A stretch of DNA of 64,000 bases from an uncultured Thermoleophilaceae bacterium. Its GTDB lineage: Bacteria; Actinomycetota; Thermoleophilia; Solirubrobacterales; Thermoleophilaceae. Every line of letters begins with the position of its first letter. Within the stretch, counting starts at the first letter, position 1. The notes beneath the pieces were generated by a model, which searched no databases, had not been told where the DNA came from, and saw only the letters and a list, made by a program, of their open reading frames with translations. Shown here piece by piece: positions 6,045 to 52,717 of this stretch. The stretch is taken from the NCBI GenBank assembly GCA_963803085.1, contig CAWDLE010000033.1, positions 71,597 to 135,596 on the forward strand, given 5' to 3'. The translations under genes and the position numbers were made by a program.

Positions 6045-6050
6045 GCTGCG

Positions 6051-8996: not shown

Positions 8997-9017
8997 GAGC
9001 GCTCATAAAAGACAGCG

Positions 9018-9071
9018 GTGAAGGGGTGGCGACGTCGACAAGTCGCCACTCGGGTCGCCGAACCCCTTCAC
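9018..9071. terminator. GC-rich compound hairpin between convergent genes (possible bidirectional terminator, no U-tract)
   Basis: The outer arms GTGAAGGGGT (9018-9027) and ACCCCTTCAC (9062-9071) are perfectly complementary. An inner GGCGAC/GTCGCC stem sits at 9028-9033 / 9042-9047. Confidence 0.35.
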
Positions 9072-9104
9072 TGCAAGGTGATGCCGGGCGCCGACCTAGT
9101 CCGA

Positions 9105-11739: not shown

Positions 11740-11812
11740 GTCTGAAGTGGTGCCTCTCTACCGTCCGAAGCTCAAGCAAGAGTGGAGGGTTTCCTTCTCC
11801 CGCAAACACCGC

Positions 11813-11842
11813 ACTGTAGGCGGAGTTCCCGGCAAGTGTCAA
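11813..11842 (-). promoter_or_regulatory. candidate sigma-A type promoter for ftsZ
   Basis: The minus strand reads TTGACA-N18-TACAGT (-35 at 11837-11842, -10 at 11813-11818), about 75 nt upstream of the ftsZ ATG, in the 183-nt ftsQ-ftsZ gap. Confidence 0.45.
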
Positions 11843-11922
11843 TCGTCCTCGCAAGAAATCGTGCAGGCAGACACTCTAGTGCTGGTCGAGAGTTGCCCTG
11901 AAGCTCAACCAGCGGGTGAGGG

Positions 11923-13020: not shown

Positions 13021-13934
13021 GCTGGCTCGCCCCACAGCGGCGTGGCGTCCACCTCGCCCAGGAACTGGACCTCGGGCTGGAGCTCCACGCCGAAGCGCTC
13101 GCGCACCCGACGGCGACCCTCGCCCATCAGCGCGATCACATCGGCCGTGGTGGCCTCGCCCATGTTCTCCACGAAGTTCGCGTGCTTCTCCGAGAAGCGT
13201 GCGCCGCCGACGGTGAGGCCGCGACAGCCGGCCTCGTCGAGCAGCACGCCGGCGCTGCGGCCCTCCGCGCGGGGATCGTCCGGGTTCTTGAAGGTCGAGC
13301 CGAAGGTCTTGATGCCGGAGGGCTGCGCGGCCCTGCGCGAGGCGCGCATGTCGGCGAGCGTGGCCTTCACCGTTTCCGGCGCCGCCGGGCTGAGCGCGAA
13401 CGAGGCGCGGGCGACGATCTCGCGGTCGGCGAGATTCGAGCGGCGGTAGCTGAAACCGAGCTCGTCGGGAGCGCGGCGCTCGGTCCCGGTGGCGGTGGTG
13501 ACCTCCACCCAGTCGAGCACGCGTGCGAGGTCTCCGCCGTAAGCGTTCGCGTTCATCTTCACGGCGCCGCCGACGGTCCCGGGGATGTTCACCCCGAACT
13601 CGAGCCCGCTGAGCCCCGCCCGAGCCGCGAAGGCCGCGGCCTGCGGGAGCCGTGCGCCGCCGCCGCAGAGCAGGCGCTGCCCATCCTGCTCAATCGTTGC
13701 AAGCGAGCCGTCAAGCTTCACGACAAGTCCTCGGAACCCTTCATCCGCTACGAGGAGGTTCGAGCCGGACCCGACCACTCCTACCTGGACCCTCTCCGCG
13801 GTTGCCCAGGCGAGCAGCTCGGCGAGGCCGTCCGGCGAATCCGGGCGGGCGAAGAAGTCGCCGTGGCCGCCCGTCCGGATAGTCGTGAGGCGGGCGAGCG
13901 GGTAGTCGGCCTCGACGCCTGGCGGGGTGCTCAT
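13017..13934 (-). CDS. murB: UDP-N-acetylenolpyruvoylglucosamine reductase
   Basis: 305 aa with a MurB FAD-binding domain (GGHGDFF, VVGSGSNLLV) and a C-terminal MurB domain. Confidence 0.93.
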   Translation of the reverse strand: MSTPPGVEADYPLARLTTIRTGGHGDFFARPDSPDGLAELLAWATAERVQVGVVGSGSNLLVADEGFRGLVVKLDGSLATIEQDGQRLLCGGGARLPQAAAFAARAGLSGLEFGVNIPGTVGGAVKMNANAYGGDLARVLDWVEVTTATGTERRAPDELGFSYRRSNLADREIVARASFALSPAAPETVKATLADMRASRRAAQPSGIKTFGSTFKNPDDPRAEGRSAGVLLDEAGCRGLTVGGARFSEKHANFVENMGEATTADVIALMGEGRRRVRERFGVELQPEVQFLGEVDATPLWGEPA

Positions 13935-19855: not shown

Positions 19856-21208
19856 CTAGCTGAGCACCCGCTCCAGCCCGACCGAGCGCGAGCCCTTCAC
19901 GAGCACGCGGTCGCCGGGACGGGCCACCTCCTCGAGCAGCGCACTGGCCTCCTCAGGCGTGGCCACGGGCTGCGTCTCGCCGTCGAAGCCGGCGGTGTAG
20001 GCGAGAGCCTCCTCACCCACCGGCACGAGCAGGTCCACCCCGCGCTTCGCCGCGTGTGCGCCGATCTCGCGGTGGTACTCAGGCGAGTCCTTGCCGAGCT
20101 CCGCCATCGTGCCCAGCACGGCAATCCGGCGCTCAGCCGGGCTTTCCGCCAGATGGTCGAGGGCCGCCCGCATGGACATGGGGTTGGCGTTGTAGCAGTC
20201 GTTCACGACCACGACACCGCCCGGCAGCTCCACCACCTCGCCGCGCATGGACGAGAACTGCACGTTCACGGCGCCGCCCACGCGCACCCCAAGCGCCCGG
20301 GCGGCGGCCACCGCGGCCAGAGTGTTGAGCAGGTTGTGAGGCTCGCGGTAGGACAGCTCGAGCTGGATCTGCTCGCCGCGCGCCTCGATCTCCGCGTGCT
20401 CTCCGTCCATGGCAAGGAGCTGGACCTGGCCCCCGGGACCGAAGGTCCACGTGTCGAGGTCGTCGCGCAGATGCGAGTCGAGCAGCGGCTCGCTGGCAGG
20501 CACCACGCACGCGGCGCCCGGCCGCAGGTCGCGGATCAGCTCAGCCTTGGCGGCGGCCACGCGCTCGACGGTGCCGAGGATCTCAAGGTGCACCGGGCCC
20601 ACATTCACGATCACCCCCACGTCGGGCTCCGCGATCTCCGCGAGCTCGGCGATCTGGCCCTCGCCTCGCATCGCCATCTCGAGCACGAGCACCTCGGTGC
20701 CGCGCTCGGCCTCGAGGATCGTGAGCGGCAGGCCGATCTCCGTGTTGAAGTTCTCCTGGCTTGCGTGAGTGCTTGCGCGCGAGCGAATCAGCGCCGCGAG
20801 GATGTCCTTGGTCGAGGTCTTGCCGGTCGAGCCGGTCACCCCGGCCACGCGCGCGCCGAGCTCGCGGCGCCACCCGCGCGCGACCAGCTGGAGCCCGCGC
20901 AGCGGATCGCGCGCCAGGATCGCTGTTGCGGAGGCGCACGACGACTGGCCGGTGGAGCTCTCCGCGGCCTCGACCGCCGCCGCGCGGTGCTCCGGCCCCA
21001 CGAGTACTCCCCACGCCCCCGCCTCGAGCGCCTGGGCGGTGAAGCGCCCGCCGTCCGCACTCGCGCCGCGCAGGCCCACGAACAGGTCCCCGGGCCCCAC
21101 CTCGCGCGAATCGATCACCGCTCGCTCCGGCCCGGCCCGCTCGGGGTCACCCGCGGCCAGCTCTCCCCCCGCCAGGGCGGCGATCCGGCCTGCCGACAGG
21201 TCGATCAC
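19856..21208 (-). CDS. murF: UDP-N-acetylmuramoyl-tripeptide--D-alanyl-D-alanine ligase
   Basis: 450 aa with GVTGSTGKTSTKD. GTG start overlapping the murE stop. Confidence 0.93.
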   Translation of the reverse strand: MIDLSAGRIAALAGGELAAGDPERAGPERAVIDSREVGPGDLFVGLRGASADGGRFTAQALEAGAWGVLVGPEHRAAAVEAAESSTGQSSCASATAILARDPLRGLQLVARGWRRELGARVAGVTGSTGKTSTKDILAALIRSRASTHASQENFNTEIGLPLTILEAERGTEVLVLEMAMRGEGQIAELAEIAEPDVGVIVNVGPVHLEILGTVERVAAAKAELIRDLRPGAACVVPASEPLLDSHLRDDLDTWTFGPGGQVQLLAMDGEHAEIEARGEQIQLELSYREPHNLLNTLAAVAAARALGVRVGGAVNVQFSSMRGEVVELPGGVVVVNDCYNANPMSMRAALDHLAESPAERRIAVLGTMAELGKDSPEYHREIGAHAAKRGVDLLVPVGEEALAYTAGFDGETQPVATPEEASALLEEVARPGDRVLVKGSRSVGLERVLS

Positions 21209-22614
21209 GCCCGCACCCCGAGCCGCGCCCGCAGCGCCTCACGAGCCACGGTCACATCGTCAAACGGCTCCTTGCGGCCGTTCTCGAACTCCTGGCCCTG
21301 CTCGTGGCCCTTTCCGGCGATCACAACCACGTCGCCGGGCTCGGCCTCCTCGATCACCCGCGTGATCGCGCCGCGGCGGTCGACCTCGCGCTCGGCCTCG
21401 GGCCCGGCGCCCTCCATCACCTCGTCGATGATCGCCTCGGGCTGCTCGCTGCGCGGGTTGTCCGACGTGACAACGACGCGATCGGCGAGCCGCCGGGCGG
21501 CCTCCCCCATCAGGGGACGCTTGCCGCGGTCGCGGTCCCCGCCCGCGCCGAAGATCACGTGAACGCGACGGCGCGTGACCTCTCGTGCCGCGCGCAGGAC
21601 GTTCTCGAGCGAGTCGGGCGTGTGCGCATAGTCCACGAGCACGCCGAAGTCCTGGCCCTCGTCGACGGCCTCGAAGCGCCCCGGCACGCGGCCGAAGCCC
21701 TCGAGCGAGATCTCCTCCACGCCCAGCGAACGCACGGCGGCCACCGCAGCGAGCACGTTCTGCACGTTGAAGAGCCCTGGCAGCGGCGAGTCGATCCGCA
21801 GCTCGCCGTCCGGTGACTCGAGCAGGAAGCGCGACCCCATCAGGTCGAACTCGATGTCGCGCGCCCGGTAGTCCGCCTCACGCTCGATGCCGAAGGTCAC
21901 GGCGTCCACCTCGGCGGCCAGGCGGCGGCCGTACCCGTCGTCCACGTTCACCACCGACAGCCCCGGCTCCTCGAACAGCCGGCGCTTGGCCGCGAAGTAA
22001 GCGTCCATGGTCTCGTGGAAGTCGAGGTGGTCCTGGGTGAGGTTGGTGAACACGCGGCATGCGAAGCGAATGCCGGCCACCCGCCCAAGCTCGAGGGCGT
22101 GCGAGGACACCTCCATCGCCACTGCGCTGTCGCCGCGGTCGCGCATGCGCCTGAAGGTCTCCTGGAGATCGATCGCCTCCGGGGTCGTTCGCTCGACCTC
22201 CTCCTCCATGCCGCCCACCACGCGCTTCACCGTCCCGAGGAGGCCCGTCTGCCGGCCGGCCGCCTCGAGCAGCTGGCGAACGAGGAACGCCGTTGTGGTC
22301 TTGCCGTTCGTGCCCGTGATGCCGACCACGTCGAGCTCGGCTGTGGGATCGCCGTAGAAGCGGGCCGCCGCCGGGCCCATGGCGGCTCGGACGTCGTCCA
22401 CCACCACCTCGGGCACGCCGAGGTCGAGGCGGCGCTCGGTCACGAGCGCGGCGGCACCGCGCTGAACCGCATCAGGAGCGAAATCGTGGCCGTCCGAGCG
22501 GAAGCCCGGTACGCAAAAAAAGAGCGCCCCCGGGGTGACGCTCTGGCTCGAGTAGGCCAGGCCCGAGATCTCGACCTCGGGCGCCCCAGGGCCCATCAGG
22601 TCGCGAAGGGTCAT
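21205..22614 (-). CDS. murE: UDP-N-acetylmuramoyl-L-alanyl-D-glutamate--2,6-diaminopimelate ligase
   Basis: GITGTNGKTTTAF is present along with a DNPR motif (TSDNPRSE). The start is taken at MTLRDLMGPG (ATG 22614). The 773-aa track ORF continues antisense through the neighbouring plus-strand gene and is not credible. Confidence 0.92.
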   Translation of the reverse strand: MTLRDLMGPGAPEVEISGLAYSSQSVTPGALFFCVPGFRSDGHDFAPDAVQRGAAALVTERRLDLGVPEVVVDDVRAAMGPAAARFYGDPTAELDVVGITGTNGKTTTAFLVRQLLEAAGRQTGLLGTVKRVVGGMEEEVERTTPEAIDLQETFRRMRDRGDSAVAMEVSSHALELGRVAGIRFACRVFTNLTQDHLDFHETMDAYFAAKRRLFEEPGLSVVNVDDGYGRRLAAEVDAVTFGIEREADYRARDIEFDLMGSRFLLESPDGELRIDSPLPGLFNVQNVLAAVAAVRSLGVEEISLEGFGRVPGRFEAVDEGQDFGVLVDYAHTPDSLENVLRAAREVTRRRVHVIFGAGGDRDRGKRPLMGEAARRLADRVVVTSDNPRSEQPEAIIDEVMEGAGPEAEREVDRRGAITRVIEEAEPGDVVVIAGKGHEQGQEFENGRKEPFDDVTVAREALRARLGVRA

Positions 22615-22644
22615 GGATCCCGGTGAGACTACCCGCTGGGCAAG

Positions 22645-23661
22645 ATGCCTCACGACCGCTACACCCCTCACGCTTTTGCGCTGGGAGCCGATAGGTATCA
22701 CGTGAGCGGCACCGCCCTGAGTTCGCTCGCTCGCCTCGCGGAACGCCGATTCACAAGCTTCTCCGAGGCAGCCGACACGGTCCTCGACTTGCTCGAGGCC
22801 GAGCTCCCGCCTGGTTCCGTACTTCTGGGCCGCGTGGACTGGGACGAGGGCGAGCTTCACCTGATCGACGTGCGCGGCGCGGCGGCCTCCCAGCTTCAGG
22901 CCGGCGGCACGCTGCCACTGGCCCCCGGAGCGAACAGCGCCGGGACCGGATTGCTCGATCCGGCCGCCCTCCAGCGCCTCTCGGTTCGCTCCTACCTGGC
23001 CCTGCCGCTCGAGACCAGCTCCGGCGCGGGAGCGCTCACCGTTTGCGCGCTCGCGGCCGGCACCGACGTCTTCTCGCAGACCCACCTGGAGCTGCTCACG
23101 GTGGCCGGGCGCCTGCTCACCTACGAGTGGGAGAGCGTGAAGTGGCGCGCCGACCTTCGCCGGCTCAACGAGCGACTGCGCGACCCGGAGCGCACCGACG
23201 CGCTCACGGGCCTGCTGAACCGCATCGCCTTTGTGGAGGCCACCGAGCGCGAGTGGCGGCTCGCCGAGCGGGGGACACTCGAGACGTACGTGCTCGCTTG
23301 CCGGATCACGAACCTCGGCCAGATCTCGCAGCGCCACGGCTCCGCCGTGGGCGAGCTGCTGCTGAAGGACGCCGCCGACGTGATGCAGACGGCCGTTCGC
23401 CGCACGGATTACGCCGGCCGCCTCGCCGACGACGTGTATGGCGCGGTGCTGGTGGGCTGCAAGGGACTCGAGGGCGCCGCCGCGTTCATCGGGCGCTACG
23501 GGCAGGCGCTCCAGCGCGTGACTCACGAGCGCCCGGCGCAGCTCGAGGTCACGTATGCGATGTCCTCGCTGGGCGACGCCGAGTCGCCCGAGGCCGCTCT
23601 TGACCGGGTCGAGACCGAGGCCAGGGACGCCCCCGTGCCGGTCACCGGGGAGGTCGCGTGA
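22645..23661 (+). CDS. GAF domain / degenerate GGDEF domain protein (A-site ADDVY, I-site RRTD retained)
   Basis: 338 aa. An N-terminal GAF-like region is followed by a GGDEF-domain start (DALTGLLNRIAFVE). The GG(D/E)EF position reads RLADDVYGAVL, and RRTD lies exactly 5 residues upstream, as for a canonical RxxD I-site. Confidence 0.8.
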   Translation: MPHDRYTPHAFALGADRYHVSGTALSSLARLAERRFTSFSEAADTVLDLLEAELPPGSVLLGRVDWDEGELHLIDVRGAAASQLQAGGTLPLAPGANSAGTGLLDPAALQRLSVRSYLALPLETSSGAGALTVCALAAGTDVFSQTHLELLTVAGRLLTYEWESVKWRADLRRLNERLRDPERTDALTGLLNRIAFVEATEREWRLAERGTLETYVLACRITNLGQISQRHGSAVGELLLKDAADVMQTAVRRTDYAGRLADDVYGAVLVGCKGLEGAAAFIGRYGQALQRVTHERPAQLEVTYAMSSLGDAESPEAALDRVETEARDAPVPVTGEVA

Positions 23662-26600
23662 GCGGGGAGGCAGGCACCGCCACGCCGCCGCCCCCGAAGG
23701 GAGTGGTTCCGCCCACTGAGCCCGGCGGCCGCTCGGGCTTCCTGAGCGACGTGATCGTCGAGCTCGGCTTCGCCACTTCGGATGCCGTCGAGGAGGCGGT
23801 CCGCGAGGCGCGCAGCGGAAGCACGGTCGCGCAGGTGCTCGTGGAGTCCGGCACGATCAGCGAGGAGCAGCTCGCGCGCGCGACCGCCGAGCGCTACGGG
23901 ATCGCCTACATCGATCTGGAGAACTACGAGGTCGACTCGAACGCCGCCGCGATGATCAAGCCGTCGGCCGCGAAGCGCTACCACGCAGTTCCCGTCGGCT
24001 TCGTGGGCGGAGGGCTGCTTGTGGCCATGGCCGATCCGGCGGACGCCCTCGGTGTGAACGACATCGCGGTGATGACGAAGCTCGAGGTCCAGCCGGCGGT
24101 GGCACCGCGCCCCGCTCTCGACGCGCTGCTCGACAAGCTCACGCTCGTCGCCGAGGGCTCCGACGAGGCAGCCGGGGACGAGGAGGGCGCGGGCAAGCCA
24201 ACGCGCGCCGCATCCACTGCGGTGTTCTGGCAGGCGGACGAGGCCGACGGCGAGGGACAGGAGCAGGATCTGCCGTCGGTCCAGCGCGCGCCGGTGGAGC
24301 GCTCCGCGGACCCCCGCGAGACCGAGCACATGCGCGCCGAGCTGGTCGAGCTGCGCCGCAAGCTGGTGGGCGCCGAGACCGAGCTCGTCAAGGCGCGCGC
24401 CGAACTGAGCGCCTCACAGGACGACCTCACGGCCGCCCGCGAGGCCGCCAACGGCCCGAACGCCCAGCAGGAGCAGCTCAAGACGGCGCTGGCTGAGGCC
24501 CGAGCGGCCGCGGACAGGGCGTCCACCGAGGTCGAGGAGCTGCGCGGCCGGATCACCGCGATGGAGTCCGAGCTCGCCGAGCAGCGCGAGAGCGCCGCAA
24601 AGGTGGCGGAGGAGCGCGAAAGCGCAGCCGCGAAGGCGGCCGAGCACGAGGCCGAGCTCGCGCGCGAGCGCGACGCAGCGGCCGCCAAGGCCGCCCAGCA
24701 CGAGGCCGAGCTCGCCGCCGCCACCGAGGCAGCCGAGAAGGCCGCCGCGATCGAAGCGGAGCTTGCCCGCGAGCGCGAGGCCGCCGCCGCTAAGGCCACC
24801 CAACACGAGGCCGAGCTCGCAAGGGAGCGCGAGGCCGCCGCCGCCAAGGCCGCCCAACACGAGGCCGAGCTCACGCGCGAGCGCGACGCAGGGGCCGCCA
24901 AGACCGCCGAGCACGAGGCCGAGCTGACCCGCGAGCGCGAGGCAGCCGCCGCAAAGGCCGCCCAACACGAGGCCGAGCTCGCCGCCGCCACCGAGGCAGC
25001 CGAGAAGGCCGCCGCGATCGAGGCCGAGCTTGCCCGCGAGCGCCAGGTAGCCGCGGCGAAGGGCGCCGCCGAATCGGACCTGCAGGCCGAGCGCGAGGCG
25101 GCGCTCGCTAGGGCGGCCGCCGTGGAGTCTGAGCTGGATGCGGAGCGCAAGGCCGCGGATACGGCGCTCGTCAGAGCCGCTGCCGCCGAGGGCGAGCTCG
25201 CCTCCTTGCGGGAGGAGACGGCTCAAAGCCTTGCCGAGATCGAGGCCGAGCTCACGCGTACTCGCGAGCACGCGGCCACGCCGCAGGCCGAGGTCGAGGC
25301 GCTTCGCGAGCAGCTCGGCAACGCGCAGGTCGAGCTCGAGGCTGCGCTCGCGGCCGCCCAGCAGGCAGAGGGCAGCGCCAAGCAGCTCCAGGAGCTTCGG
25401 GACTCGCTCGGCAACACGCAGGCCGAGCTGGAGAGCGTGCGCGGTCGCAGCGACGAGCTCGAGGCTCAGGTGCAGCAGGCCGAGGACCGAGCCCGCACTC
25501 TCACGGAGAACGCCGGAGCGGCACAGACCCGAGTGGAGGAACTCGAGCGCCTGCTCGACAGCACGCGCACCGAGGGCCGGAACGTCGAAACCAAGCTGCA
25601 GGAGGCGCTCGCCGCCCGCGAGAGCCACGAGGCCGACCTCACGGGTGCCCGTGCCGCGGCGGAACAGGCTGAGGCCAAGCTCGAGGATGCCCGCGCACAG
25701 GCCGAGCGGCTGGAGAGCGAGCTGAACGAGGCGCGCGGCGCCGACAGCGGAATCGAGCACAAGCTGGCTGACGCCGGCGTTGCGATCGAACGACTCGAGG
25801 CGGAGCTTGCGCGCTCGCTCGCGGAGAACGAGACCTTTGGCGCACAGCTGCGCGAGGCCGTGGCCGCCTCGGAGGGGCACGAGGAGGAGCTGGGGGCCGC
25901 ACGCAGCGAAGCCAAGCGCCTCGCCACCGAACTTGCCGAGGCGCACGCCGAGACAAAGACGCTCGCCGACGAACTCGCCCTCACCCGTAGCGCCACCGAG
26001 GGATTCGACGCGAGCCTCAGCGAGGCGCGCGACCAGGCCGAGGAGCTTCGCAGCGAGCTCGCCGACGCCCGCTCACAGGTCGAGCGGCTCGAAGCCGATC
26101 TCGAGCAGGCCCGCTCGGCCAAGGAGGAGCTCGACGCCGAGCGCGCACGCACGCGCTCCGAGCTCGAGGGTCTCGAGACCGAGCTGGCCCAGGCGCGGGC
26201 GGCGAGCGACGGCCTCACCGCTCAGCTCAGCGGTGCACGGGCGAAAAGCGAGGGTCTGATCGTCGAGCTGCGCGGTGCCCGCGGGGCGGCCGAGGCGCTC
26301 GAGGAGAAGCTCACCGAGGCACAGGCCGCGACAGAGGCGGCGGAGGCCGAGCTGGCCGAGGAGCGCACCGCGAAGGAGAAGCTGGCAGCCAAGCTCTCAG
26401 AGGCACGCGCCAAGGCCGAGAAGCTCGCGGAGCTGCAGCCGCGGCTCGACGATGCGGAGGCCGAGCTCGCGAAGCTGCGCGACGAGGCCGGCAGCCTCGA
26501 GGACCTGCGCACCGAGCTGGAAAATGCGAACGCAGGACTGGAGAGCGCGAGCGCCGAGGCACGCAAGCAGGGCGACGAGCTCCTGATCACGCAGAAGGCG

Positions 26601-26924
26601 CTCGACCGCGCCGGCACGCAGGCGGCGGAGCTGCGCAGCGAGCTGGCCGAGACCCAGACCGCGCTTGACCGCGCACGCCTCGAGGCCCAGGAGCTGGACA
26701 CGCTGCACGCCAAGCTGTCGGACGCCGAGCTTGCGCTCCGCGAGTCCGACCAGGCGCACAAACAGACGCGGAAGCGCATGGAGCGCGTGGAGGGCCGGCT
26801 GGCCGAGGCCCAGGGCGCCGCATTTGCCTCGGAGCGGGCCGCGGATCAGCTGCGCATGGCGCAGGAGCGGATGCGCGAGGCGCTCCGCCCGCTCGACGAA
26901 GACGAGCCGGATCCGTCCGCCTAG
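23658..26924 (+). CDS. T2SSE_N/MshEN-like N-terminal domain fused to a very long Ala/Glu-rich coiled coil (1088 aa)
   Basis: The GTG start overlaps the upstream stop (GTGA). Residues of roughly 25-165 look like a GspE/PilB N-domain (VAQVLVESGTISEEQLARATAERYGIAYIDLENYEVD...AKRYHAVPVGF...LLVAMADP). The remainder is heptad-like low complexity (AELARERxAAAAKAAQHE...) with no TM segment. Confidence 0.85.
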   Translation: MSGEAGTATPPPPKGVVPPTEPGGRSGFLSDVIVELGFATSDAVEEAVREARSGSTVAQVLVESGTISEEQLARATAERYGIAYIDLENYEVDSNAAAMIKPSAAKRYHAVPVGFVGGGLLVAMADPADALGVNDIAVMTKLEVQPAVAPRPALDALLDKLTLVAEGSDEAAGDEEGAGKPTRAASTAVFWQADEADGEGQEQDLPSVQRAPVERSADPRETEHMRAELVELRRKLVGAETELVKARAELSASQDDLTAAREAANGPNAQQEQLKTALAEARAAADRASTEVEELRGRITAMESELAEQRESAAKVAEERESAAAKAAEHEAELARERDAAAAKAAQHEAELAAATEAAEKAAAIEAELAREREAAAAKATQHEAELAREREAAAAKAAQHEAELTRERDAGAAKTAEHEAELTREREAAAAKAAQHEAELAAATEAAEKAAAIEAELARERQVAAAKGAAESDLQAEREAALARAAAVESELDAERKAADTALVRAAAAEGELASLREETAQSLAEIEAELTRTREHAATPQAEVEALREQLGNAQVELEAALAAAQQAEGSAKQLQELRDSLGNTQAELESVRGRSDELEAQVQQAEDRARTLTENAGAAQTRVEELERLLDSTRTEGRNVETKLQEALAARESHEADLTGARAAAEQAEAKLEDARAQAERLESELNEARGADSGIEHKLADAGVAIERLEAELARSLAENETFGAQLREAVAASEGHEEELGAARSEAKRLATELAEAHAETKTLADELALTRSATEGFDASLSEARDQAEELRSELADARSQVERLEADLEQARSAKEELDAERARTRSELEGLETELAQARAASDGLTAQLSGARAKSEGLIVELRGARGAAEALEEKLTEAQAATEAAEAELAEERTAKEKLAAKLSEARAKAEKLAELQPRLDDAEAELAKLRDEAGSLEDLRTELENANAGLESASAEARKQGDELLITQKALDRAGTQAAELRSELAETQTALDRARLEAQELDTLHAKLSDAELALRESDQAHKQTRKRMERVEGRLAEAQGAAFASERAADQLRMAQERMREALRPLDEDEPDPSA
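24571..25160 (+). repeat. in-frame tandem repeat array (about 10 units of 51-54 nt; higher-order duplication of about 270 nt)
   Basis: The protein units ARER[DE]AAAAKAAQHEAEL and AAATEAAEKAAAIEAEL recur. The block AAKAAQHEAELAAATEAAEKAAAIEAELARER occurs twice, at about 24690 and 24955. Confidence 0.85.
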
Positions 26925-28621
26925 CCGGGCGGGATCTTCAGGTACGGCAGCGCGAACTCCATGATGCGCTCGAAGGCGGGCGCTGCCACGGTGCCGCCGT
27001 AGATGTCGCCGCGTGGCGTGTCGACCATCACCGCCACCAGCAGGCGCGGGTTCTTCGCCGGGGCGAAGCCAATGAAGGACGCGATGAAGTCCGTCTTCGA
27101 GTAGCCCCCCTTGATCGCCTTCTCGGCCGTACCGGTCTTTCCGGCGAGCGTGTACCCCTCGACCTGGGCCTCCTCCGCCGTCCCTCCGGCGGCCAGCACA
27201 CCCTCGAGCATGTGCGACACCTGCTCCGCGGTACGGCGCGAGAGCACCCGCTTGGGCGGCGGCGCCTCACCCTGCACGATGTAGGGACGGCGCATCACGC
27301 CGTGGTTGGCGATCGCGGTGTACGCGGTGGCCATCTGCATCGGGGTGACCGCGATGCCCTGGCCGATCGGCATGTTCCCCATCGAGGAGCCCGAGTAGTT
27401 CCCCGGGCGAAGGACGATGCCGCCCTCCTCGCCTGGGAGGTCCACTCCGGTCGGCCGGCCGAACCCGAACCGGCGCACCCACTTGTCGAACTTCTTCGCG
27501 CCGAGCTTCAGCCCGATCATCACCGAGCCCACGTTCGATGACTCCGCGAGGATCTGCGACACCGTCTTGGTGCCTCCGCCGCCATCGTGGGCCTCGCCGA
27601 CGGTCCGGTCAGCCACCGTAATCTCCGGCGGCACGGCCAGCGTCGTTCCGGGCTCCACCAGCCTCTCCTCGAGCGCGCCGGACACGGTGAAGGCCTTGAA
27701 GGTCGAGCCCGGCTCGTAGTTCGCCTGGATCGAGCGGTTCTGGCGCGCGTAGGCGGGCGCGCCGTCCACGTTGTTGGCGTCCACACGCGGCCAGTTCGCG
27801 AGCGCGAGCACCTGGCCCGTCCGTGGGTCCAACACAACCGCCGTGGCACCCACCGGCGTGTAGGTCTGGCCGACGTCCGCGAGCACCGCCTCGGTGCGCT
27901 CCTGGATGCGGGCATCGAGTGTGAGCGCGAGATCGTCGCCAGGCTCGGAGCGCTTCGTCTCGATCATGCTGATCGGCTCGCCGAGCGCGTCCTTCACGAG
28001 CCGGCGCTCGCCATCCTCGCCGCTCAATGACTCGTCCTCCGAGTACTCCAGCCCAGACAGCCCGGTGTTGTCGGTGCCGACGAGGCCAAGCACCTGCGAC
28101 GCCAGGAACCCCTGCGGGTACGTGCGCTTCGGCTCGGTGACCGTGCCGATGCCCTCGATCCCGAGCTTCTCGACCTTGTCGCCGCGCGTGGCGTCCATCT
28201 TGCGCTCCAGGTAGATGAACCCGGTCTTCCTGTCGGATAGCTCGCGGAGCAGCTCGTCCTCGGGACGCTCGAGCAGCGGCGCGAGCTCGGCGGCCACCTT
28301 CACCGGGTCCTTGATCAGAAACGGATTTGCGAAGACGGTCACGGAGTCCTCAGAGACCGCCAGCTCCACGCCGTTGCGGTCCACGATCGTCCCGCGGCGC
28401 GCCGGATCGGCCATGTCCTCGATCTGCTGGCTCACCGCGCGCTCGGACAGTGAGCCGGCTCTCACCGTTCCGATCCAGGTGGCGCGCAGGGCCGCCAGCC
28501 CGAGCAGTAGAAGGAAGACCGCGAACAGCAGGCCGATGCGGCGCTCGACCAGCCGCACGGGCGGACGCCCCGGACCCCGCTGGCGGCGCCGGGTCGGAGG
28601 GCGTCGCTGGGTAGCGGGCAC
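26921..28621 (-). CDS. ftsI: class B penicillin-binding protein / peptidoglycan D,D-transpeptidase FtsI
   Basis: 566 aa with an N-terminal TM segment and the transpeptidase triad SxxK (GSTFKAF), SxN (ESSNVG) and KTG (GKTGTA). Confidence 0.93.
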   Translation of the reverse strand: MPATQRRPPTRRRQRGPGRPPVRLVERRIGLLFAVFLLLLGLAALRATWIGTVRAGSLSERAVSQQIEDMADPARRGTIVDRNGVELAVSEDSVTVFANPFLIKDPVKVAAELAPLLERPEDELLRELSDRKTGFIYLERKMDATRGDKVEKLGIEGIGTVTEPKRTYPQGFLASQVLGLVGTDNTGLSGLEYSEDESLSGEDGERRLVKDALGEPISMIETKRSEPGDDLALTLDARIQERTEAVLADVGQTYTPVGATAVVLDPRTGQVLALANWPRVDANNVDGAPAYARQNRSIQANYEPGSTFKAFTVSGALEERLVEPGTTLAVPPEITVADRTVGEAHDGGGGTKTVSQILAESSNVGSVMIGLKLGAKKFDKWVRRFGFGRPTGVDLPGEEGGIVLRPGNYSGSSMGNMPIGQGIAVTPMQMATAYTAIANHGVMRRPYIVQGEAPPPKRVLSRRTAEQVSHMLEGVLAAGGTAEEAQVEGYTLAGKTGTAEKAIKGGYSKTDFIASFIGFAPAKNPRLLVAVMVDTPRGDIYGGTVAAPAFERIMEFALPYLKIPPG

Positions 28622-28623
28622 GG

Positions 28624-29391
28624 CTAGCCCGCCGGCGCGGTGGTCGTGGGAGGCGCTGTGGTGGCGGCCGGATCTGCGGGGATGGTGGTGGCGGCCGGGT
28701 CGGCCGCAGCCGGATCGGTGACGACAGGGTCGGCTGCGGCGGGGTCGGTGACGGCTGGGTCTGTGCTCGGCACCACCGGCTCCGGTGCCACCGGCTCCGG
28801 AGCGACGTACGTGAGATTCGGCTCGGTGATCCGCTTGACCGCCTGTCCGGCGTCGCGCGTGGGCCGCGCCTTCAGGTAGCGCACCTCACCGGGCGCGGGC
28901 AGCACGAGCCCGAGCAGCGCGGCCGACTCCTGGATGCGCTCGCTCGAAGCGAGCCTGGCCTCCTCGAGGAGGAGGCGTGCGTTCTCGCGCTTGAGCGCCG
29001 AGACCCGGTCCGCATCGCGTGCGATGTCGCGGTTCATCTGGAGCAGGTCGACGTTGAAGAAGACGATCCCAGCAAGCAGCACGAAGACGAGTGCGATCCA
29101 GCCGCGTCCGGACAGGAGGGCGTCGAGGAGGCTGCCGGTGCGCGCGCGGGCCGCCCGGGCGAAGGGGGCGTTGAGGACGCGGACCGGAAGGGCGACGGCG
29201 GGCGCGCCCGCGGAGGCACCGGACAGGCGCCGGTGCGCCGCGGCCCCACGCTGTGAAGTGGTGCGCGTCCGCCCGGCGTGCCGCGCCGGCGCACGGCGAG
29301 CGGGTGCGCGCTTCGGCGCAGCCTGGGCCCGACCGGTGGGAGCGCGGCGTGACGCAGGGCGGGGAGCGGTGGCCGCCGCCGTGCGGGCCAT
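28624..29391 (-). CDS. ftsL: FtsL-like septum formation protein with a basic N-tail and repetitive Pro/Asp/Ala/Thr C-tail
   Basis: Sits between rsmH and ftsI. It has a single TM segment (WIALVFVLLAGIVFFNV) followed by a short coiled coil (DRVSALKRENARLLLEEARL). The start is taken at MARTAAAT (29391), overlapping the rsmH stop by 1 nt. Confidence 0.75.
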   Translation of the reverse strand: MARTAAATAPRPASRRAPTGRAQAAPKRAPARRAPARHAGRTRTTSQRGAAAHRRLSGASAGAPAVALPVRVLNAPFARAARARTGSLLDALLSGRGWIALVFVLLAGIVFFNVDLLQMNRDIARDADRVSALKRENARLLLEEARLASSERIQESAALLGLVLPAPGEVRYLKARPTRDAGQAVKRITEPNLTYVAPEPVAPEPVVPSTDPAVTDPAAADPVVTDPAAADPAATTIPADPAATTAPPTTTAPAG

Positions 29392-30356
29392 CAGGCGGCT
29401 TCCCTGAGCTTGCGCGCGGCACGCAGGCGGCCCGACTTGGCGCGCGGGTTGTCGGCCATCTCTCCGGCCGTCGGCACGACGGCGCGGCCGATCAACTCCG
29501 CCTCCGGCTCGCGCCCGCACACGCACACGGGGAAGTCGGGCGGACAGACGCAGCCGCGGGCGCGCTCCGCGAGGAAGCGCTTTACGCGCCGGTCCTCGAG
29601 TGAGTGGAAGGAGATCGCGGCGAGGCGGCCGTTCTCGCGCAGCAGCTCCCAGGCGAGCGGGAGCGCGCGATCGAGAGAGTCGAGCTCTGAGTTCACGGCG
29701 ATCCGGATGGCCTGGAACACGCGCTTCGCGGGGCTGCCACCGCCGAAGCTGCGGCGCACCGCGGCCGGCAGCGCGCCCTCGATCGCCGAAACCAGCTCGC
29801 CTGTCGTCTGAATCGGCGCGCGCTCGCGGCGCCGCACGATCTCGCGCGCGATCCGCTTCGAGTTCGGGTCCTCGCCTAGGCGCCGGAAAAGCTGGGCCAG
29901 CTGGCGTTCGTCCCAGGTGTTCACGATCTCGCGCGCGTCGAGCTGTTGGCCCGGGTCCATGCGCATGTCGAGCGGCGCGTCGTACGAGTAGGAGAAGCCG
30001 CGCTCGCGCGCGTCGACCTGCATCGACGAGATCCCGAGGTCCAGGTAGATGACGTCCGCGGACAGGCCCTCTTCGCGGAGGAGGTCGAGCCCCTCGGCGT
30101 AATCCATGCGCAGGAAGCGCGTCTCGCAGGCGACCTCGCGCGCAAGCTCCTCGAAGTGCTCCTCGGCCGCGGGGTCGCGATCGATGCAGACGAGCGTCCC
30201 GGACGGGCCGATCCGGTCTGCGATCAGGCGCGCGTGACCGCCCGCGCCGAAGGTGCAGTCGACCACCGTCTCGCCCGCCGCCGGCGCGGTCAACTCGATC
30301 AGCTCGCCGGCCAGCACGGGTACGTGGACGCGGTTCATGTCAAGAAGGATGGCCAA
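29391..30356 (-). CDS. rsmH: 16S rRNA (cytosine1402-N4)-methyltransferase
   Basis: HVPVLAGE..., DCTFGAGGHA and FHSLEDR motifs are present. An alternative start is ATG 30338. Confidence 0.93.
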   Translation of the reverse strand: MAILLDMNRVHVPVLAGELIELTAPAAGETVVDCTFGAGGHARLIADRIGPSGTLVCIDRDPAAEEHFEELAREVACETRFLRMDYAEGLDLLREEGLSADVIYLDLGISSMQVDARERGFSYSYDAPLDMRMDPGQQLDAREIVNTWDERQLAQLFRRLGEDPNSKRIAREIVRRRERAPIQTTGELVSAIEGALPAAVRRSFGGGSPAKRVFQAIRIAVNSELDSLDRALPLAWELLRENGRLAAISFHSLEDRRVKRFLAERARGCVCPPDFPVCVCGREPEAELIGRAVVPTAGEMADNPRAKSGRLRAARKLREAA

Positions 30357-30774
30357 GGCGTTCCGTCACCTCCCCGATCTCGGCGTCGAGGGCCTCCTGC
30401 TGCTCGTGCCAGTGCTCCTTGGACCAGACCTCGAGATGGTCGCCGACACCCACCACCACGACCTCCTTCTCGATCCCGGTGTGGGTGAGCAGCGGCGGCG
30501 GCAGCGTCACGCGGCCGCTCGCGTCCAGTTCGATCTCGAAGGAGTTGCCCTGGTAGAAGCGCGAGAGCTTGCGGTACTCCGAGCCCATCGGGTTCAGGCC
30601 ACCGAGCGCGCGCTCGATGATCGCCTCGTGCGTCTCGGGAGTCCACACCGCCACGCAGGGCTCCGGGTCCTTGGCGAGAACGGTTCCACTGGCGAAGGAC
30701 GTGCGAAAGCGGGCCGGAATACTGAGCCGGTTCTTCGCATCCAACGAGTGCTCGAAGTGGCCGCGAAATGCCAA
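30340..30774 (-). CDS. mraZ: division/cell wall cluster transcriptional regulator MraZ
   Basis: 144 aa with two SpoVT/AbrB-like repeats carrying DxxxR motifs (LDAKNRLSIP, LDASGRVTLP). TTG start. Confidence 0.92.
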   Translation of the reverse strand: MAFRGHFEHSLDAKNRLSIPARFRTSFASGTVLAKDPEPCVAVWTPETHEAIIERALGGLNPMGSEYRKLSRFYQGNSFEIELDASGRVTLPPPLLTHTGIEKEVVVVGVGDHLEVWSKEHWHEQQEALDAEIGEVTERLGHPS

Positions 30775-31683: not shown

Positions 31684-32532
31684 CTAGAGCGGCAAGGCGT
31701 CGGCGCTGCCATCGAGCAGCGCCGACGCCAGCGCCGCTGCCACCAGCAATAGGACCGACGGCACGAGCAGCAGCGCCACCACGAGCTGGATCTTCGGACC
31801 GGCGCGGGCGGCGTCGTCGCGGATCCGGCGCGCCAGCGCAAAGCGGGCGCTGCGGGCCTGTGCTGCGAGCGTGTCCGCCAGCGGAGCGCCGTGACGCCGT
31901 GCGCGCTCGAGCGCGCCGACGAGTGCGTGGATCTCCGGCAGCGGCAGCCGCTCGTCCATTCCGCGGAGCGCCTCCGCCAGCGGGACCCCAAGCGCGACCT
32001 CCCGCCCCACTGCCGCCCACTCGCGCGCGAGCGGACCGCTGGAGCGCTCGCCCACCAAGCGCAGCGCCTCCGGCAGCGAGCCGCCGGCCTCGACGCTCAC
32101 GCGCAGGATGTCGAGCAGCGCCGGCAGGTCGCGGCGCACACGCCGCGCGCGCTCGGCGGCCACGCGCGAGAGCCAGAGGTCCGGGGCGAGGAAGCCTGCC
32201 GCCGGCGCGCCCAGGATGATGACGAGCCCGAGGCGGCCGGGCGCGAGCGCCGCGAGCGGCAGCGAGGCCGCTCCCAGCAGAACCGCGGCGGCCACCTTCG
32301 CCGCCATCGCCTCACGAACGCCGAGACCCGCGGGACGTCCAGCCGCCTCGATGCGACCGCGGAGATCACGTGGCGCGCCGGCGGGCCGGGCGCGGCGGCC
32401 GGCAGATGCGAGCAGGAGCAGCAACCTGAGGCCGCGCTCCGGTCCGCGCGGCGCCGCACGCCGCTCCGGCACGAGCGTGAGCAGGCCGGCCGCTCCGCAC
32501 GCACCGGCCGCGAATGCGAGCAGCGTGCTCAC
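31684..32532 (-). CDS. tadC: type II secretion system F family protein (TadC-like)
   Basis: T2SSF motif LPALLDILRVSVEAGGSLPEAL with flanking TM segments. The start is taken as GTG 32532 (GTGA overlap with the tadB stop). The rest of the 573-aa track ORF is an Arg-rich shadow. Confidence 0.8.
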   Translation of the reverse strand: MSTLLAFAAGACGAAGLLTLVPERRAAPRGPERGLRLLLLLASAGRRARPAGAPRDLRGRIEAAGRPAGLGVREAMAAKVAAAVLLGAASLPLAALAPGRLGLVIILGAPAAGFLAPDLWLSRVAAERARRVRRDLPALLDILRVSVEAGGSLPEALRLVGERSSGPLAREWAAVGREVALGVPLAEALRGMDERLPLPEIHALVGALERARRHGAPLADTLAAQARSARFALARRIRDDAARAGPKIQLVVALLLVPSVLLLVAAALASALLDGSADALPL

Positions 32533-33395
32533 CAGCGCACTCTTCCGAGCCTGCGCGTGAGCACGGCGGCGGCGAGTTGCAGCATGAGGGCGATACCCAC
32601 GAGCCACGCAGTGAGGAACGAGCTCCACAGCCCGAGAAACCAACCCGGGCTTGCGAGCTCGGCCAGCAGGCCGCCGCCCACCGGCATCAGGACCACGAGC
32701 ATCGCGGTGAAGCGCGCCTGCGCGGTGGCGGAGCGGACCTCGTCCTCGAGACGCGAGTGGTCCTCCATCGCGCGGGCGCTCTCGCGGAGCAGGCCCGCGA
32801 GGTCGCCGCCGGCATGGCGCTGGAGCACGCACGCCGCCACGAGCGTGTCCATGCGTGGTGAGCGCACGCGTAGCCGCATGGCCTCGAGTGCGTCGTCGGT
32901 GGCAGCGCCCGCCTCGAGCTCGGCGGCTGTGCGGCGGAGCTCGTGCCCCGCCGCTCCACCGAGGCCGCCGGCCGCCTCGACGAGGGCCGCGCGCAGAGAG
33001 CGCCCGCCGCCGATCGCATCGGCGATGGCCACCGCGCCCTGCGCCACGCCGGCGTCGACCGCAGCGCGATAGCGCTCGCGGCGCGCGCGCAGCAGTCGGC
33101 CGACGGCCCACGGGCTCGAGGCGCCAAGCGCGAGCCCGGCAAGCGGGCCGACGGTGATCGCCCCGGCAGCGAGCGCGCCCACCGACACGCCCACCAGCAG
33201 GCGCCGGCGCTCGGCCACCCCAGGGTCGCGCCCCTCGCGCCCGGCGCGCACGAGAACCTCCACGAGCCCAGCGCCCGCGCCCGCCCAGCGTGGCACACGC
33301 GCTGCGACCCGGGACAGTGCGAGCCCGCCGAGCTCGAGCGCCGCAGCACCGGCGGCCGCGCCGCCAAAAAACGCGAGCGCCGCGGCGGCGCTCAC
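32529..33395 (-). CDS. tadB: type II secretion system F family protein (TadB-like)
   Basis: 288 aa with a T2SSF-like core (IADAIGGGRSLRAAL) and terminal TM segments. Confidence 0.8.
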   Translation of the reverse strand: MSAAAALAFFGGAAAGAAALELGGLALSRVAARVPRWAGAGAGLVEVLVRAGREGRDPGVAERRRLLVGVSVGALAAGAITVGPLAGLALGASSPWAVGRLLRARRERYRAAVDAGVAQGAVAIADAIGGGRSLRAALVEAAGGLGGAAGHELRRTAAELEAGAATDDALEAMRLRVRSPRMDTLVAACVLQRHAGGDLAGLLRESARAMEDHSRLEDEVRSATAQARFTAMLVVLMPVGGGLLAELASPGWFLGLWSSFLTAWLVGIALMLQLAAAVLTRRLGRVRW

Positions 33396-33441
33396 CAGGG
33401 CCCACCGCGTGCCGCGCTCGGGGATGCCGCGCCCATCGCGA

Positions 33442-34653
33442 TCACGGGAGCGCGCCGCGTGGCGCGCGCACGCTCGCCCCTCCCCCGCGCAGTCGCTCCA
33501 GCCGCGTCGCGAGCTGCCCGGGGCCTGGCCGGCGCAGGCGGGCGCCGCGCGACCACAGCTCGCGTGTGCCCGCCCCGCCCGCCACCCGCACCACCTCGGT
33601 CACGGATTCGACCACCCGCGATCCGTCGGGAAGCCGGGCCTGGTGCACAACCACGTCCAGGGCGCTCGCCACCTGATCCCTCACGGCGGCATGTGGCAGC
33701 CCCACTCCCGCCATCAGGGCAAGCGTTTCAACCCGCCGCAACGCATCGGCCGGTGAGTTCGCGTGGACGGTCGTGAGCGAGCCGTCGTGCCCGGTATTGA
33801 GCGCCTGGAGCATGTCGAGCGCCTCCGCGCCCCTCACCTCACCCACGACGATCCGGTCGGGCCGCATGCGCAGCGCGTTCACCACCAACTGCCTGATCGT
33901 GATCTCGCCGCGACCCTCGAGGTTCGGCGGGCGCGCCTCGAGCCGCACGACGTGTCGCTGCCGCAGCCGTAGCTCGGCCGCGTCCTCGATGGTGACTATG
34001 CGCTCCTCGCCCGGGATCGCTCCCGAAAGGGCGTTCAGCGTGGTCGTCTTCCCGGAGCCGGTCCCACCGCTCACCAGAACGGACGCCCGCGCCGCCACGC
34101 AGAGCGCGAGCAGCTCGGCGAGCTCCGCCGGAAGCGTGCCGCCCGCCACCAGCTCCCGCAGCGAGAAGCCCTGGCGCCGGAAGCGCCGGACGGTGAGGCA
34201 CGGACCCGAGAGCGACAACGGCGGGATCACCACGTTCACGCGTGACCCGTCGGCCAGCCGGGCGTCGCACAGCGGCGACGCCTCGTCCACCCTGCGCCCC
34301 AGCGGCGCGAGGATCCGCTCGACGGCGTGCATCAGCTCCGCCTCCGACCCGAAGCGCACGCCGGTCCGCTCGATGCGCCCGCGCCGCTCCACGTACACGG
34401 CCTCGGGCCCGTTCACCATCACCTCGTCCACCGCAGGATCCGACAGCAGCGGCTCGAGCGGCCCCAGACCGGTGGCCAGCAGCAGCACGCGCCGGCGCAG
34501 CGAGTCCTGCTCCGATTCCGGCAAGGCACCCGCCTCACGTTCCACGAGCTCGCGCACCTCGGCATCGAGCCCCGCGGCGCCCGTCTCGCCCGCGCGCGCC
34601 CTCTCGATCAGCCGCGCGCGCAGCGCGACCGCGAGGTCATCGAGAGCCTCCAT
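33442..34653 (-). CDS. cpaF: CpaF/TadA family pilus assembly ATPase
   Basis: 403 aa with Walker A (VSGGTGSGKTTTLNAL), RPDRIVVGEVRG and HDGSLTTVHAN. Confidence 0.92.
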   Translation of the reverse strand: MEALDDLAVALRARLIERARAGETGAAGLDAEVRELVEREAGALPESEQDSLRRRVLLLATGLGPLEPLLSDPAVDEVMVNGPEAVYVERRGRIERTGVRFGSEAELMHAVERILAPLGRRVDEASPLCDARLADGSRVNVVIPPLSLSGPCLTVRRFRRQGFSLRELVAGGTLPAELAELLALCVAARASVLVSGGTGSGKTTTLNALSGAIPGEERIVTIEDAAELRLRQRHVVRLEARPPNLEGRGEITIRQLVVNALRMRPDRIVVGEVRGAEALDMLQALNTGHDGSLTTVHANSPADALRRVETLALMAGVGLPHAAVRDQVASALDVVVHQARLPDGSRVVESVTEVVRVAGGAGTRELWSRGARLRRPGPGQLATRLERLRGGGASVRAPRGALP

Positions 34654-52666: not shown

Positions 52667-52685
52667 TGCATTCTCCAAGTTCTGG

Positions 52686-52717
52686 GGTGAGTCTTGCTTA
52701 CTCAACGTAAGTGAGTA
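52686..52717 (-). promoter_or_regulatory. HAIR-like inverted repeat (possible HspR operator) in the lon promoter region
   Basis: The minus strand reads TATACT (-10-like) ...cgTTGAGT-aagcaag-ACTCAcc, compared with the HAIR consensus CTTGAGT-N7-ACTCAAG. A third half-site (TGAGT/ACTCA) sits a further 7 nt away. Confidence 0.4.

Follow-up and report, generated by a model that had tools for sequence, protein, structure and literature searches.

An MshEN-headed coiled-coil protein and its co-translated degenerate GGDEF partner in the division gene cluster of Thermoleophilia

Introduction

What does an MshEN domain do when it heads a long coiled coil and no ATPase follows it, and would a second messenger reach such a protein? 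The question is raised by a gene in a 64,000-nucleotide stretch of DNA from an uncultured Thermoleophilaceae bacterium (assembly GCA_963803085.1, contig CAWDLE010000033.1, positions 71,597 to 135,596 of the forward strand), hereafter called the window. Between the ftsI and murE genes of its division and cell wall (dcw) cluster lies an open reading frame (ORF) encoding 1088 amino acids, preceded by and overlapping a GGDEF-domain gene. A preliminary description, made from the letters alone, singled this ORF out as a candidate second-messenger-linked cytoskeletal or division factor.

Here, we describe a lineage-specific head-rod-tail coiled-coil protein of Thermoleophilia that is co-translated with a dead GAF-like/GGDEF protein. 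The components (an MshEN domain, a degenerate GGDEF receptor, and a coiled-coil scaffold) are of known kinds; what is new is how they are combined, the conserved module of two genes that they form, and the place of that module in the dcw cluster. Our searches of the literature found nothing on a coiled-coil fusion of MshEN/T2SSE_N, on division proteins of Thermoleophilia, or on a c-di-GMP (cyclic di-GMP) element in an actinobacterial dcw cluster, in line with the earlier impression that no protein with this fusion has been characterized. The reading that we favor, although we would put its chances slightly below even, is that of a division scaffold in which any c-di-GMP input would come through the inhibitory site (I-site) of the partner and not through the head.

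Results

An MshEN head on a long rod

The gene and the parts of its product are listed below; coordinates refer to the window, and residue numbers refer to the protein.

23658 to 26924 (+): MshEN-head coiled-coil gene, GTG start, 1088 aa (ORF list, Pfam, NCBIfam, codon statistics)
23694 to 23738 (+): N-terminal extension PKGVVPPTEPGGRSG, residues 13 to 27, conserved and packing on the head (pLDDT 93 at residues 11 to 20 in the AF2 model)
23739 to 23894 (+): MshEN_N four-helix bundle, helices at residues 29 to 35, 41 to 51, 57 to 63, and 69 to 80 (AF2 model)
23895 to 24143 (+): MshEN_C (T2SSE_N/GSPII) alpha/beta subdomain, residues 80 to 162 (Pfam PF05157; elements within residues 83 to 148 with pLDDT >90)
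24168 to 24332 (+): acidic linker of low confidence, residues 171 to 225 (pLDDT 54 to 58, AF2)
24219 to 24233 (+): short conserved AVFWQ motif inside the acidic linker
24333 to 26807 (+): alpha-helical rod, residues 226 to 1050, about 825 aa (composition, scarcity of proline, heptad periodicity)
24611 to 25068 (+): tandem array of 54-nt (18-aa) Ala-rich repeats (RERE/DAAAAKAAQHEAEL) within the rod (TRF)
26784 to 26894 (+): conserved tail RVEGRLAEAQGAAFASERAADQLRMAQERMREALRPL, residues 1043 to 1079, kept in family alignments A1, A2, and A4

The window is 71% G+C. In its G+C fractions of 0.88 at third and 0.50 at second codon positions, the reading frame resembles genuine genes of the window; the alternative frames overlapping it exceed 0.8 at second positions. 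A database lookup of the exact 1088-aa sequence returned no record. The protein falls into five parts, namely the N-terminal extension (PKGVVPP...GGRSG), the MshEN/GSPII head (residues 28 to 165), the acidic linker, the rod, and the tail with an acidic end.

The resemblance of the first residues to T2SSE_N/MshEN, noted at the outset by eye, is borne out by profile and structure comparisons. Pfam MshEN (PF05157) matched residues 80 to 162 at 56.5 bits, where the cutoff is 23.1 (E=2.8e-15), and it also matched all relatives tested. Searching the Protein Data Bank (PDB) with phmmer aligned residues ~26 to 165 to PilF (E=6.8e-44), Geobacter PilB (2e-16), and MshE (5htl, 1.6e-10), while NCBIfam gave a weak match of residues 26 to 152 to NfrB. 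In an AF2 prediction of residues 1 to 209, built on 63 relatives, pLDDT was 85 overall and above 90 for residues 11 to 160. The best Foldseek match of this model was c-di-GMP-bound MshE (5htl; TMt 0.81, root mean square deviation 2.6 Å over 138 columns), followed by PilF GSPII-B, PilF GSPII-A, and the complex of the Xanthomonas citri PilB N-domain with PilZ (7lkm). The absence of a following ATPase was also read correctly: the protein has neither a Pfam match to the T2SSE ATPase domain (PF00437) nor a Walker A string ([AG]xxxxGK[ST]), both of which are present in the true PilBs of the lineage.

Ala accounts for 26% of residues 226 to 1088, Glu for 19%, Leu for 11.5%, and Arg for 10%, and only 3 prolines occur between residues 226 and 1077. 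A hydrophobic periodicity of 3.5 residues is evident in residues 250 to 380 and 505 to 1050 (z up to 7.8 against shuffled sequences), and the best period is 3.45 to 3.55 in all rod windows with a signal, as expected of ordinary heptads. If it formed one continuous coiled coil, the rod would be about 120 nm long. The coiled coil had been described as uninterrupted and free of transmembrane segments. No transmembrane segment was found in the protein (the maximum Kyte-Doolittle 19-mer, 1.47, lies within the head), but the acidic linker and a heptad-free block of Ala-rich 18-aa repeats at residues ~320 to 470 interrupt the coiled coil. This block (TRF period 54, 8.1 copies, 75% matches, score 407) contains six HEAEL units spaced by 18 aa except for one 35-aa step from the second to the third, and it gave neither a heptad nor a 3.64-residue periodicity signal. 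Matches of the rod to SMC, Rad50, tropomyosin, and other models in Pfam and NCBIfam fell far under the cutoffs and were set aside as generic coiled-coil noise.

Scy and FilP rods have a 51-residue repeat pattern with ~3.64 residues per turn, and they differ greatly in length; the gene for DivIVA lies in or near the division cluster. Like DivIVA/Wag31, Scy, and FilP, the present protein is a long, Ala/Glu/Leu/Arg-rich actinobacterial rod, encoded in a division cluster and varying in length among relatives. Unlike Scy and FilP, it has canonical heptads, as judged by periodicity, and it bears a globular head of the MshEN type and a tail specific to its family. The proposed likeness to Scy/FilP holds for composition only; the period differs, and no homology was found (Scy and FilP references were not compared). 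Pfam gave no DivIVA match in the protein either.

A co-translated partner with a dead GGDEF domain

The partner gene lies immediately upstream and has the following features.

22645 to 23661 (+): partner gene encoding a GAF-like sensor, a long stalk helix, and a degenerate GGDEF domain (Pfam, AF2, Foldseek, alignment of 50 sequences)
23398 to 23409 (+): RxxD inhibitory-site motif RRTD, partner residues 252 to 255, aligned to RQSD of 3ign
23425 to 23439 (+): degenerate active site, ADDVY where GG[DE]EF would be expected, aligned to the GGEEF of 3ign, 5euh, and WspR
23647 to 23661 (+): Shine-Dalgarno sequence GGGGAGG (23647 to 23653) and GTGA start/stop overlap (23658 to 23661), read directly

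Translational coupling of the two genes, as proposed earlier, can be read from the sequence, since the GTG start at 23658 overlaps the partner's TGA at 23659 to 23661. An in-frame [AG]TGA overlap recurs in 42 of 45 partner/coiled-coil pairs of other genomes, including pairs outside the dcw cluster (L045, L068, L079). As listed, the partner ORF begins with ATG at 22645, while its orthologues begin at the residue corresponding to GTG 22702 (VSGTALS...), giving ~319 aa. Pfam GGDEF matched residues 184 to 315 (E=4.6e-18). The AF2 model (pLDDT 82) comprises GAF-like strands and helices at residues 24 to 137, a 35-residue stalk helix at 145 to 179, and a GGDEF fold, and its Foldseek matches include the GAF-GGDEF protein Dcsbis (4zmu), a phytochrome-diguanylate cyclase (5llw), and a GGDEF domain with bound c-di-GMP (3ign), with a TMt of 0.81.

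The upstream neighbor is a GGDEF-domain protein as had been stated, but the cyclase that this implied is predicted to be catalytically dead in all ~50 orthologues. In these, [ASG][DE]D-x-[FYLV] is found at the former active site, Arg has taken the place of the Mg-binding Asp, and Ser and Gln stand for the Asn and Asp that contact GTP (LACRITNLG, 23293 to 23319, in the window; orthologues likewise). The RxxD motif precedes the former active site by five residues, and neither R252 nor D255 varies among 50 orthologues. In distant partners encoded outside the dcw cluster, the active-site pentapeptide has drifted freely (VGEDRF, TGTMDL, VGASTL, IDPIAV, and others), while R[RSTGN][TSAG]D is retained.

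PopA of Caulobacter and PelD of Pseudomonas are degenerate GGDEF receptors that bind c-di-GMP at an RxxD I-site. The partner resembles them in its GGDEF fold, destroyed GG[DE]EF motif, and RxxD five residues upstream, where binding is putative; it differs in its GAF-like N-domain, its coupling to a coiled-coil protein, and the lack of any sequence relation beyond the domain. By profile, it would be an I-site receptor for c-di-GMP. A dead partner with an invariant RxxD makes it more plausible that a second-messenger link runs through the partner as the receptor.

A second GGDEF protein of the window (44016 to 44909, -; PAS and GGDEF by Pfam) has DDERL at the GGDEF site and RPLD, an RxxD motif, five residues upstream. 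Both GGDEF domains among the window ORFs scanned belong to dead cyclases that retain the I-site.

A conserved slot between ftsI and murE

The genes and overlaps flanking the pair are as follows.

21205 to 22614 (-): murE, with its ATG at 22614, divergent from the partner gene over ~90 bp (Mur ligase orthologues in L001 and L002)
26921 to 28621 (-): ftsI, PBP dimer and transpeptidase (phmmer to L001 and L002 genes with Pfam PBP_dimer and Transpeptidase)
26921 to 26924 (both strands): convergent stop-codon overlap of the coiled-coil TAG (26922 to 26924) and the ftsI stop (26921 to 26923, -)

The dcw genes of the window are all on the minus strand, in the order mraZ (30340 to 30774), rsmH, an ftsL-like ORF, ftsI, murE, murF, mraY, an unscanned murD-sized gap, ftsW, murG, murC, murB, ftsQ (POTRA), and ftsZ (10651 to 11739). 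The location inside the dcw cluster given in the preliminary description is correct and recurs in more than 35 genomes, with the qualification that the pair occupies the opposite strand: in the window and at all dcw loci, it is convergent with ftsI and divergent from murE. A promoter and terminator scan of 22300 to 27300 gave nothing above shuffled sequences, including no terminator-like site between the convergent coiled-coil gene and ftsI.

In several relatives (P0072, P0074, P0078, P0084, P0088, P0102, P0111), the coiled-coil ORF continues for ~15 codons into the 3' end of ftsI in antisense, ending ...PTAAGSSGTAARTP; in the window (26921 to 26964), the stop comes earlier than in those relatives. 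Between murB and ftsZ, the window has ftsQ (POTRA) only and no ftsA. Docking of the head on an FtsA/PilM-like actin-fold protein of the cluster was considered and found no support, as ftsA is missing from it.

A narrow family of variable length

A survey of the fusion across taxa, as had been suggested, found relatives in Thermoleophilia only. A word-indexed search with residues 1 to 252 yielded 238 relatives with PF05157 only, the few named ones being Thermoleophilaceae metagenome-assembled genomes (MAGs). A genome scan with one genome per species found a relative in 199 genomes, and loci were taken from the 80 that were retained; all 80 are Thermoleophilia (Thermoleophilaceae, Solirubrobacterales, Conexibacter, Baekduia). 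More than 35 genomes share the order murE(-), dead GGDEF(+), MshEN-coiled-coil(+), ftsI(-). The coiled-coil gene occupies the ftsI-murE slot at L001 to L044, L047, L049, L050, L052, and L061, and in six of these genomes (L044, L047, L049, L050, L052, L061), it stands there alone. At six other loci, the pair lies elsewhere, in one case as an additional copy in a MAG whose dcw cluster contains the pair too, and the neighbors there (MiaB-like, MerB, HD/KH, desaturase, MEDS kinase, WS/DGAT) share no theme. A further 26 loci encode genuine PilB ATPases of about 580 aa with Walker A.

A tail profile run against 1.84 billion representative proteins retrieved 45 clusters only, and 9 of 9 full-length matches tested carry an N-terminal MshEN, so that head and tail define one narrow family. 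The [ST]AVFWQ motif of the linker is found at most loci of the L001 to L037 subclade and is missing from more distant members.

The rod of some 900 aa described earlier is not peculiar to this gene: rod length is hypervariable, differing about five-fold within the family, partly by recent tandem duplication. Intact coiled-coil proteins have about 330 to 1403 aa, and basal relatives have about 270 aa. When a cultured host was sought with a basal member as the query, only metagenome proteins of ~270 aa were returned. Genomic loci give about 850 to 1100 aa for the nearest relatives, with 911 to 1098 aa for those nearest the window, so that 1088 aa is typical of the subclade. That 1088 aa might be a length outlier was suggested by the closest database proteins of 240 to 410 aa and was rejected, as their C-termini are frameshift products within the repeats. 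Gene calls in long-read soil MAGs (P0001, P0002, P0006, P0051; L006, L012, L030, L032, L035) are often shortened or are Arg/Gly-rich frameshift products in the rod. Because of such faulty calls in the repeats, the lengths given in databases fall far short of the true ones. The variable length suggests the role of a spacer or filament under a loose length constraint.

At the Solirubrobacterales locus L078, there are two MshEN-containing ORFs, and a further 693-aa GGDEF-family ORF lies directly downstream of the coiled-coil gene (1 to 663, -; 5977 to 8019, +; 8076 to 10157, +), which hints at a local expansion of the module.

Can the head bind c-di-GMP?

The two helical motifs separated by a 4-aa spacer read as first described, with motif I, FLSDVIVELGFATSDAVEEAVREA, at residues 28 to 51, motif II, TVAQVLVESGTISEEQLARATAER, at residues 56 to 79, and the spacer RSGS at residues 52 to 55 (4 aa in this subclade). 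The loss of the signature Arg and the terminal Gln was likewise seen correctly, and to it we add the replacement of Gly at position 3. At positions 1, 3, and 24, motif I has F28, S30, and A51, and motif II has T56, A58, and R79, all six with hardly any variation in the family. All hydrophobic positions (2, 6, 7, 11, 12, 17, 21) and Gly10 are retained.

It is unlikely that the head binds c-di-GMP in the canonical manner, as judged by its motifs. Wang et al. (2016) counted likely binders with a relaxed motif, namely [RKPN]hGxxhhxx[GAS]hhxxxxhxxxhxx[QNKRYWST] in two tandem 24-residue copies (PMC5013675). This pattern matched the positive controls PilF-B, PilF-C, and Geobacter PilB (PilF GSPII-A does not count as a negative control, since the beginning of motif I was missing from the string used) and matched none of 120 family proteins, 58 coiled-coil ORFs, or 26 lineage PilBs, the protein of the window included. 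NCBIfam c-di-GMP_motif (NF053729) scored 25 bits on the head, under its cutoff of 38. MshE and the lineage PilBs have a basic cluster ahead of motif I, of which a single Arg is left in the head. Of the second-messenger link first proposed, the part that placed it in the head fares poorly on this evidence, while the RxxD partner offers a candidate for it.

A head that is itself a nucleotide receptor, for c-di-GMP bound noncanonically or for a related ligand such as cyclic GMP-AMP (cGAMP), would make the protein a scaffold under direct second-messenger control, as the preliminary description favored. We consider this unlikely. The model, of high confidence, shows the complete MshEN fold and finds its best superpositions in MshE and PilF-B with c-di-GMP bound, the hydrophobic positions and Gly10 are kept, and the variant pocket residues F28, S30, A51, T56, and R79 are nearly invariant across the family. 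Position 1 may be hydrophobic, as PilF K167L binds at 2 nM and motif II of PilF-B begins with Leu; cGAMP is also bound, weakly, by MshEN (PMC5013675). Against this stand, besides the failure of the relaxed motif meant to cover known binders and the low NF053729 score, the changes at positions 3 and 24. Gly3 is important, and Ala in its place, as in motif II of the head, sterically blocks the pocket of the nonbinding PilF GSPII-A (PMC12002112). PilF GSPII-B that has lost both Gln residues, as the head has, does not bind (PMC11731258), and changes at the corresponding motif positions cost XpsE its binding. Restoring the consensus alone did not give binding back to PilF GSPII-A; together with the binding of K167L, this indicates that a motif reading is fallible in both directions.

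Origin of the head and the pilus connection

The head is 45 to 50% identical to the Thermoleophilia PilB ATPases and 27 to 34% identical to the PilB and MshE proteins in the PDB. Heads and lineage PilBs share the extension motif G[VIL][TV][PA]P..GG, the PilBs being more basic there, and the variant motif F-[LI]-[ST]-DVIVELGF...A / T....R. In a rough neighbor-joining tree without support values, all coiled-coil heads form one clade apart from the PilBs, and the non-dcw pairs are basal. Judged by these sequences, the head is a product of duplication of the lineage's own PilB N-domain. A likely history is that the duplicated PilB N-domain was paired with a dead GGDEF gene, that the pair was then inserted between ftsI and murE, and that a few lineages lost the partner.

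Given this descent, the pair could instead serve pilus biogenesis, motility, or polar organization, for example by positioning a type IV or Tad machine, its dcw slot being a stable but irrelevant insertion. GSPII/N1E domains normally dock on platform proteins of the PilM/GspL type (PMC12002112, PMC8389850), and the most basal pairs are located outside the dcw cluster. Tad/type IV-like pilus genes also lie directly upstream of mraZ (31891 to 34653, -), encoding a T2SSE ATPase of 403 aa without MshEN and T2SSF, with the same synteny in two distant relatives (L001, 14301 to 17146; L002, 13381 to 16483). However, these genes are on the other side of mraZ, four dcw genes away, true PilB genes occupy unrelated loci, and the non-dcw copies have no flanking pilus genes. 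Moreover, relatives with heads of only ~50 to 60% identity retain the exact ftsI-murE slot, even where the partner is absent. We regard a pilus role as improbable, about on a par with ligand binding by the head.

Other features of the window

Within the dcw cluster (10651 to 13934, -), murB sits between murC and ftsQ, and ftsQ adjoins ftsZ; downstream of ftsZ, where model actinobacteria typically have a sepF/divIVA block, lies an M20 peptidase gene. In the place of ftsL, an ORF (28624 to 29526, -) is 300 aa as listed and without a Pfam match, with long Arg/Ala/Pro-rich N-terminal and Pro/Thr/Ala-rich C-terminal stretches. About 1.7 kb past the ftsZ end of the cluster, a LuxR-type regulator of 981 aa is encoded (6051 to 8996, +; AAA_16 ATPase, TPR, GerE helix-turn-helix). 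A 694-aa DUF6351 tannase-like protein (36619 to 38703, +) is matched by Pfam from end to end (E=8e-241). In a Lon protease ORF of 994 aa (50378 to 53362, -), the substrate-binding domain begins at residue 236, so that either an extended N-terminus or a start listed too far upstream is possible.

Discussion

The division scaffold that we favor would work as follows. The partner and the coiled-coil protein would form a complex; the dead GGDEF partner would take in c-di-GMP at its I-site, another cue through its GAF-like domain, or both; the MshEN head would be a docking module and not a nucleotide receptor; and rod and tail would scaffold or position components at the division site, the signal state modulating septal wall synthesis or division. 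A docking role of the head has precedents. In X. citri, a nonbinding PilB N-domain receives the c-di-GMP signal through PilZ-FimX, FimX being a degenerate GGDEF-EAL receptor (PMC8389850), and PilF GSPII-A has been proposed as a "landing pad" for proteins (PMC12002112). The head resembles the X. citri PilB N-domain in its MshEN-type fold and degenerate motifs, and the indirect arrival of c-di-GMP is what we propose for the dead-GGDEF partner as well. It differs in that X. citri uses a pilus/secretion ATPase, a PilZ adaptor, and an EAL receptor site, whereas here there would be a GAF-like/GGDEF partner with an I-site and an interaction predicted from the genes.

Several points weigh against this proposal. 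Complex formation, c-di-GMP binding by the partner, and the division role are drawn from gene order and motifs. The pair also occurs outside the dcw cluster, and its opposite strand means that it is not co-transcribed with the dcw genes. Some coiled-coil genes lack an adjacent partner, so that conservation of the head is independent of an adjacent partner gene. No active diguanylate cyclase was found among the window ORFs scanned. As for the head, motif-based prediction of MshEN binding has failed before, the binding of K167L means that Phe28 is not disqualifying, and the invariant residues lining the pocket would suit a ligand too.

The least probable alternative, that no second messenger is involved and that head and GGDEF domain are degenerate relics used only for protein-protein contacts within a complex of structural, cytoskeletal, or tethering function with any input via the partner's GAF-like domain, is in keeping with the departure of both signaling domains from their functional consensus, with the lack of an intact cyclase among the scanned ORFs, and with a mean column identity of 69% across the 50 partner orthologues, at which the invariance of RxxD alone is weak evidence, but it sits poorly with the survival of RxxD in distant non-dcw partners despite free drift of the active-site pentapeptide, an I-site kept in a dead GGDEF domain being the hallmark of known receptors, PopA and PelD among them.

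A division scaffold with input through the partner also has to be set against the known uses of MshEN. Like the N-domains of MshE, PilB, and PilF (5HTL, 8PDK, 9G1W, 5TSG), the head has the two-subdomain fold and tandem 24-residue helical motifs with their hydrophobic residues and Gly10; unlike them, it has no ATPase, noncanonical positions 1, 3, and 24 (F/S/A and T/A/R), a spacer that has 4 aa in this subclade, a packed, conserved N-terminal extension, and a rod fused to it. Wang et al. (2016) described MshEN as an N-terminal regulatory module in fusions without the ATPase, among them the NfrB glycosyltransferase and proteins with REC, HD-GYP, CheA, cyclase, or kinase domains. Those fusions have enzymatic or signaling outputs and mostly canonical motifs, and a structural coiled-coil output is not among the architectures described there.

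In its most elaborate form, the proposal would be a two-protein, c-di-GMP-gated cytoskeletal device of Thermoleophilia, in which the dead GAF-GGDEF receptor loads on the PilB-derived head and, through the tail, switches rod assembly or the grip on the septal machinery for wall synthesis (FtsI, FtsW, and the MurE side), and in which the rod, 30 to 180 nm long, is a spacer or ruler whose length evolves as tandem repeats expand. This version is speculative, and we give it a low probability. If true, it would represent a new class of MshEN output, structural and not enzymatic, and a division regulator without a counterpart in model actinobacteria.

Thermoleophilia are abundant soil actinobacteria, and almost no cell biology is known for them. 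Their dcw cluster, which lacks ftsA, carries a conserved pair on the opposite strand, exactly between the gene for the septal transpeptidase and those for the Mur ligases. The partner I-site, the head, and the tail are small, defined targets, so that the hypotheses can be tested in vitro although the organisms are uncultured. If signals do reach the head through the partner, this would be a further case of a signal arriving at an MshEN-type domain indirectly, via a degenerate GGDEF receptor. If the pair acts at division, it would be a lineage-specific regulator of the divisome or of wall synthesis, assembled from recycled parts of a pilus motor and of c-di-GMP signaling.

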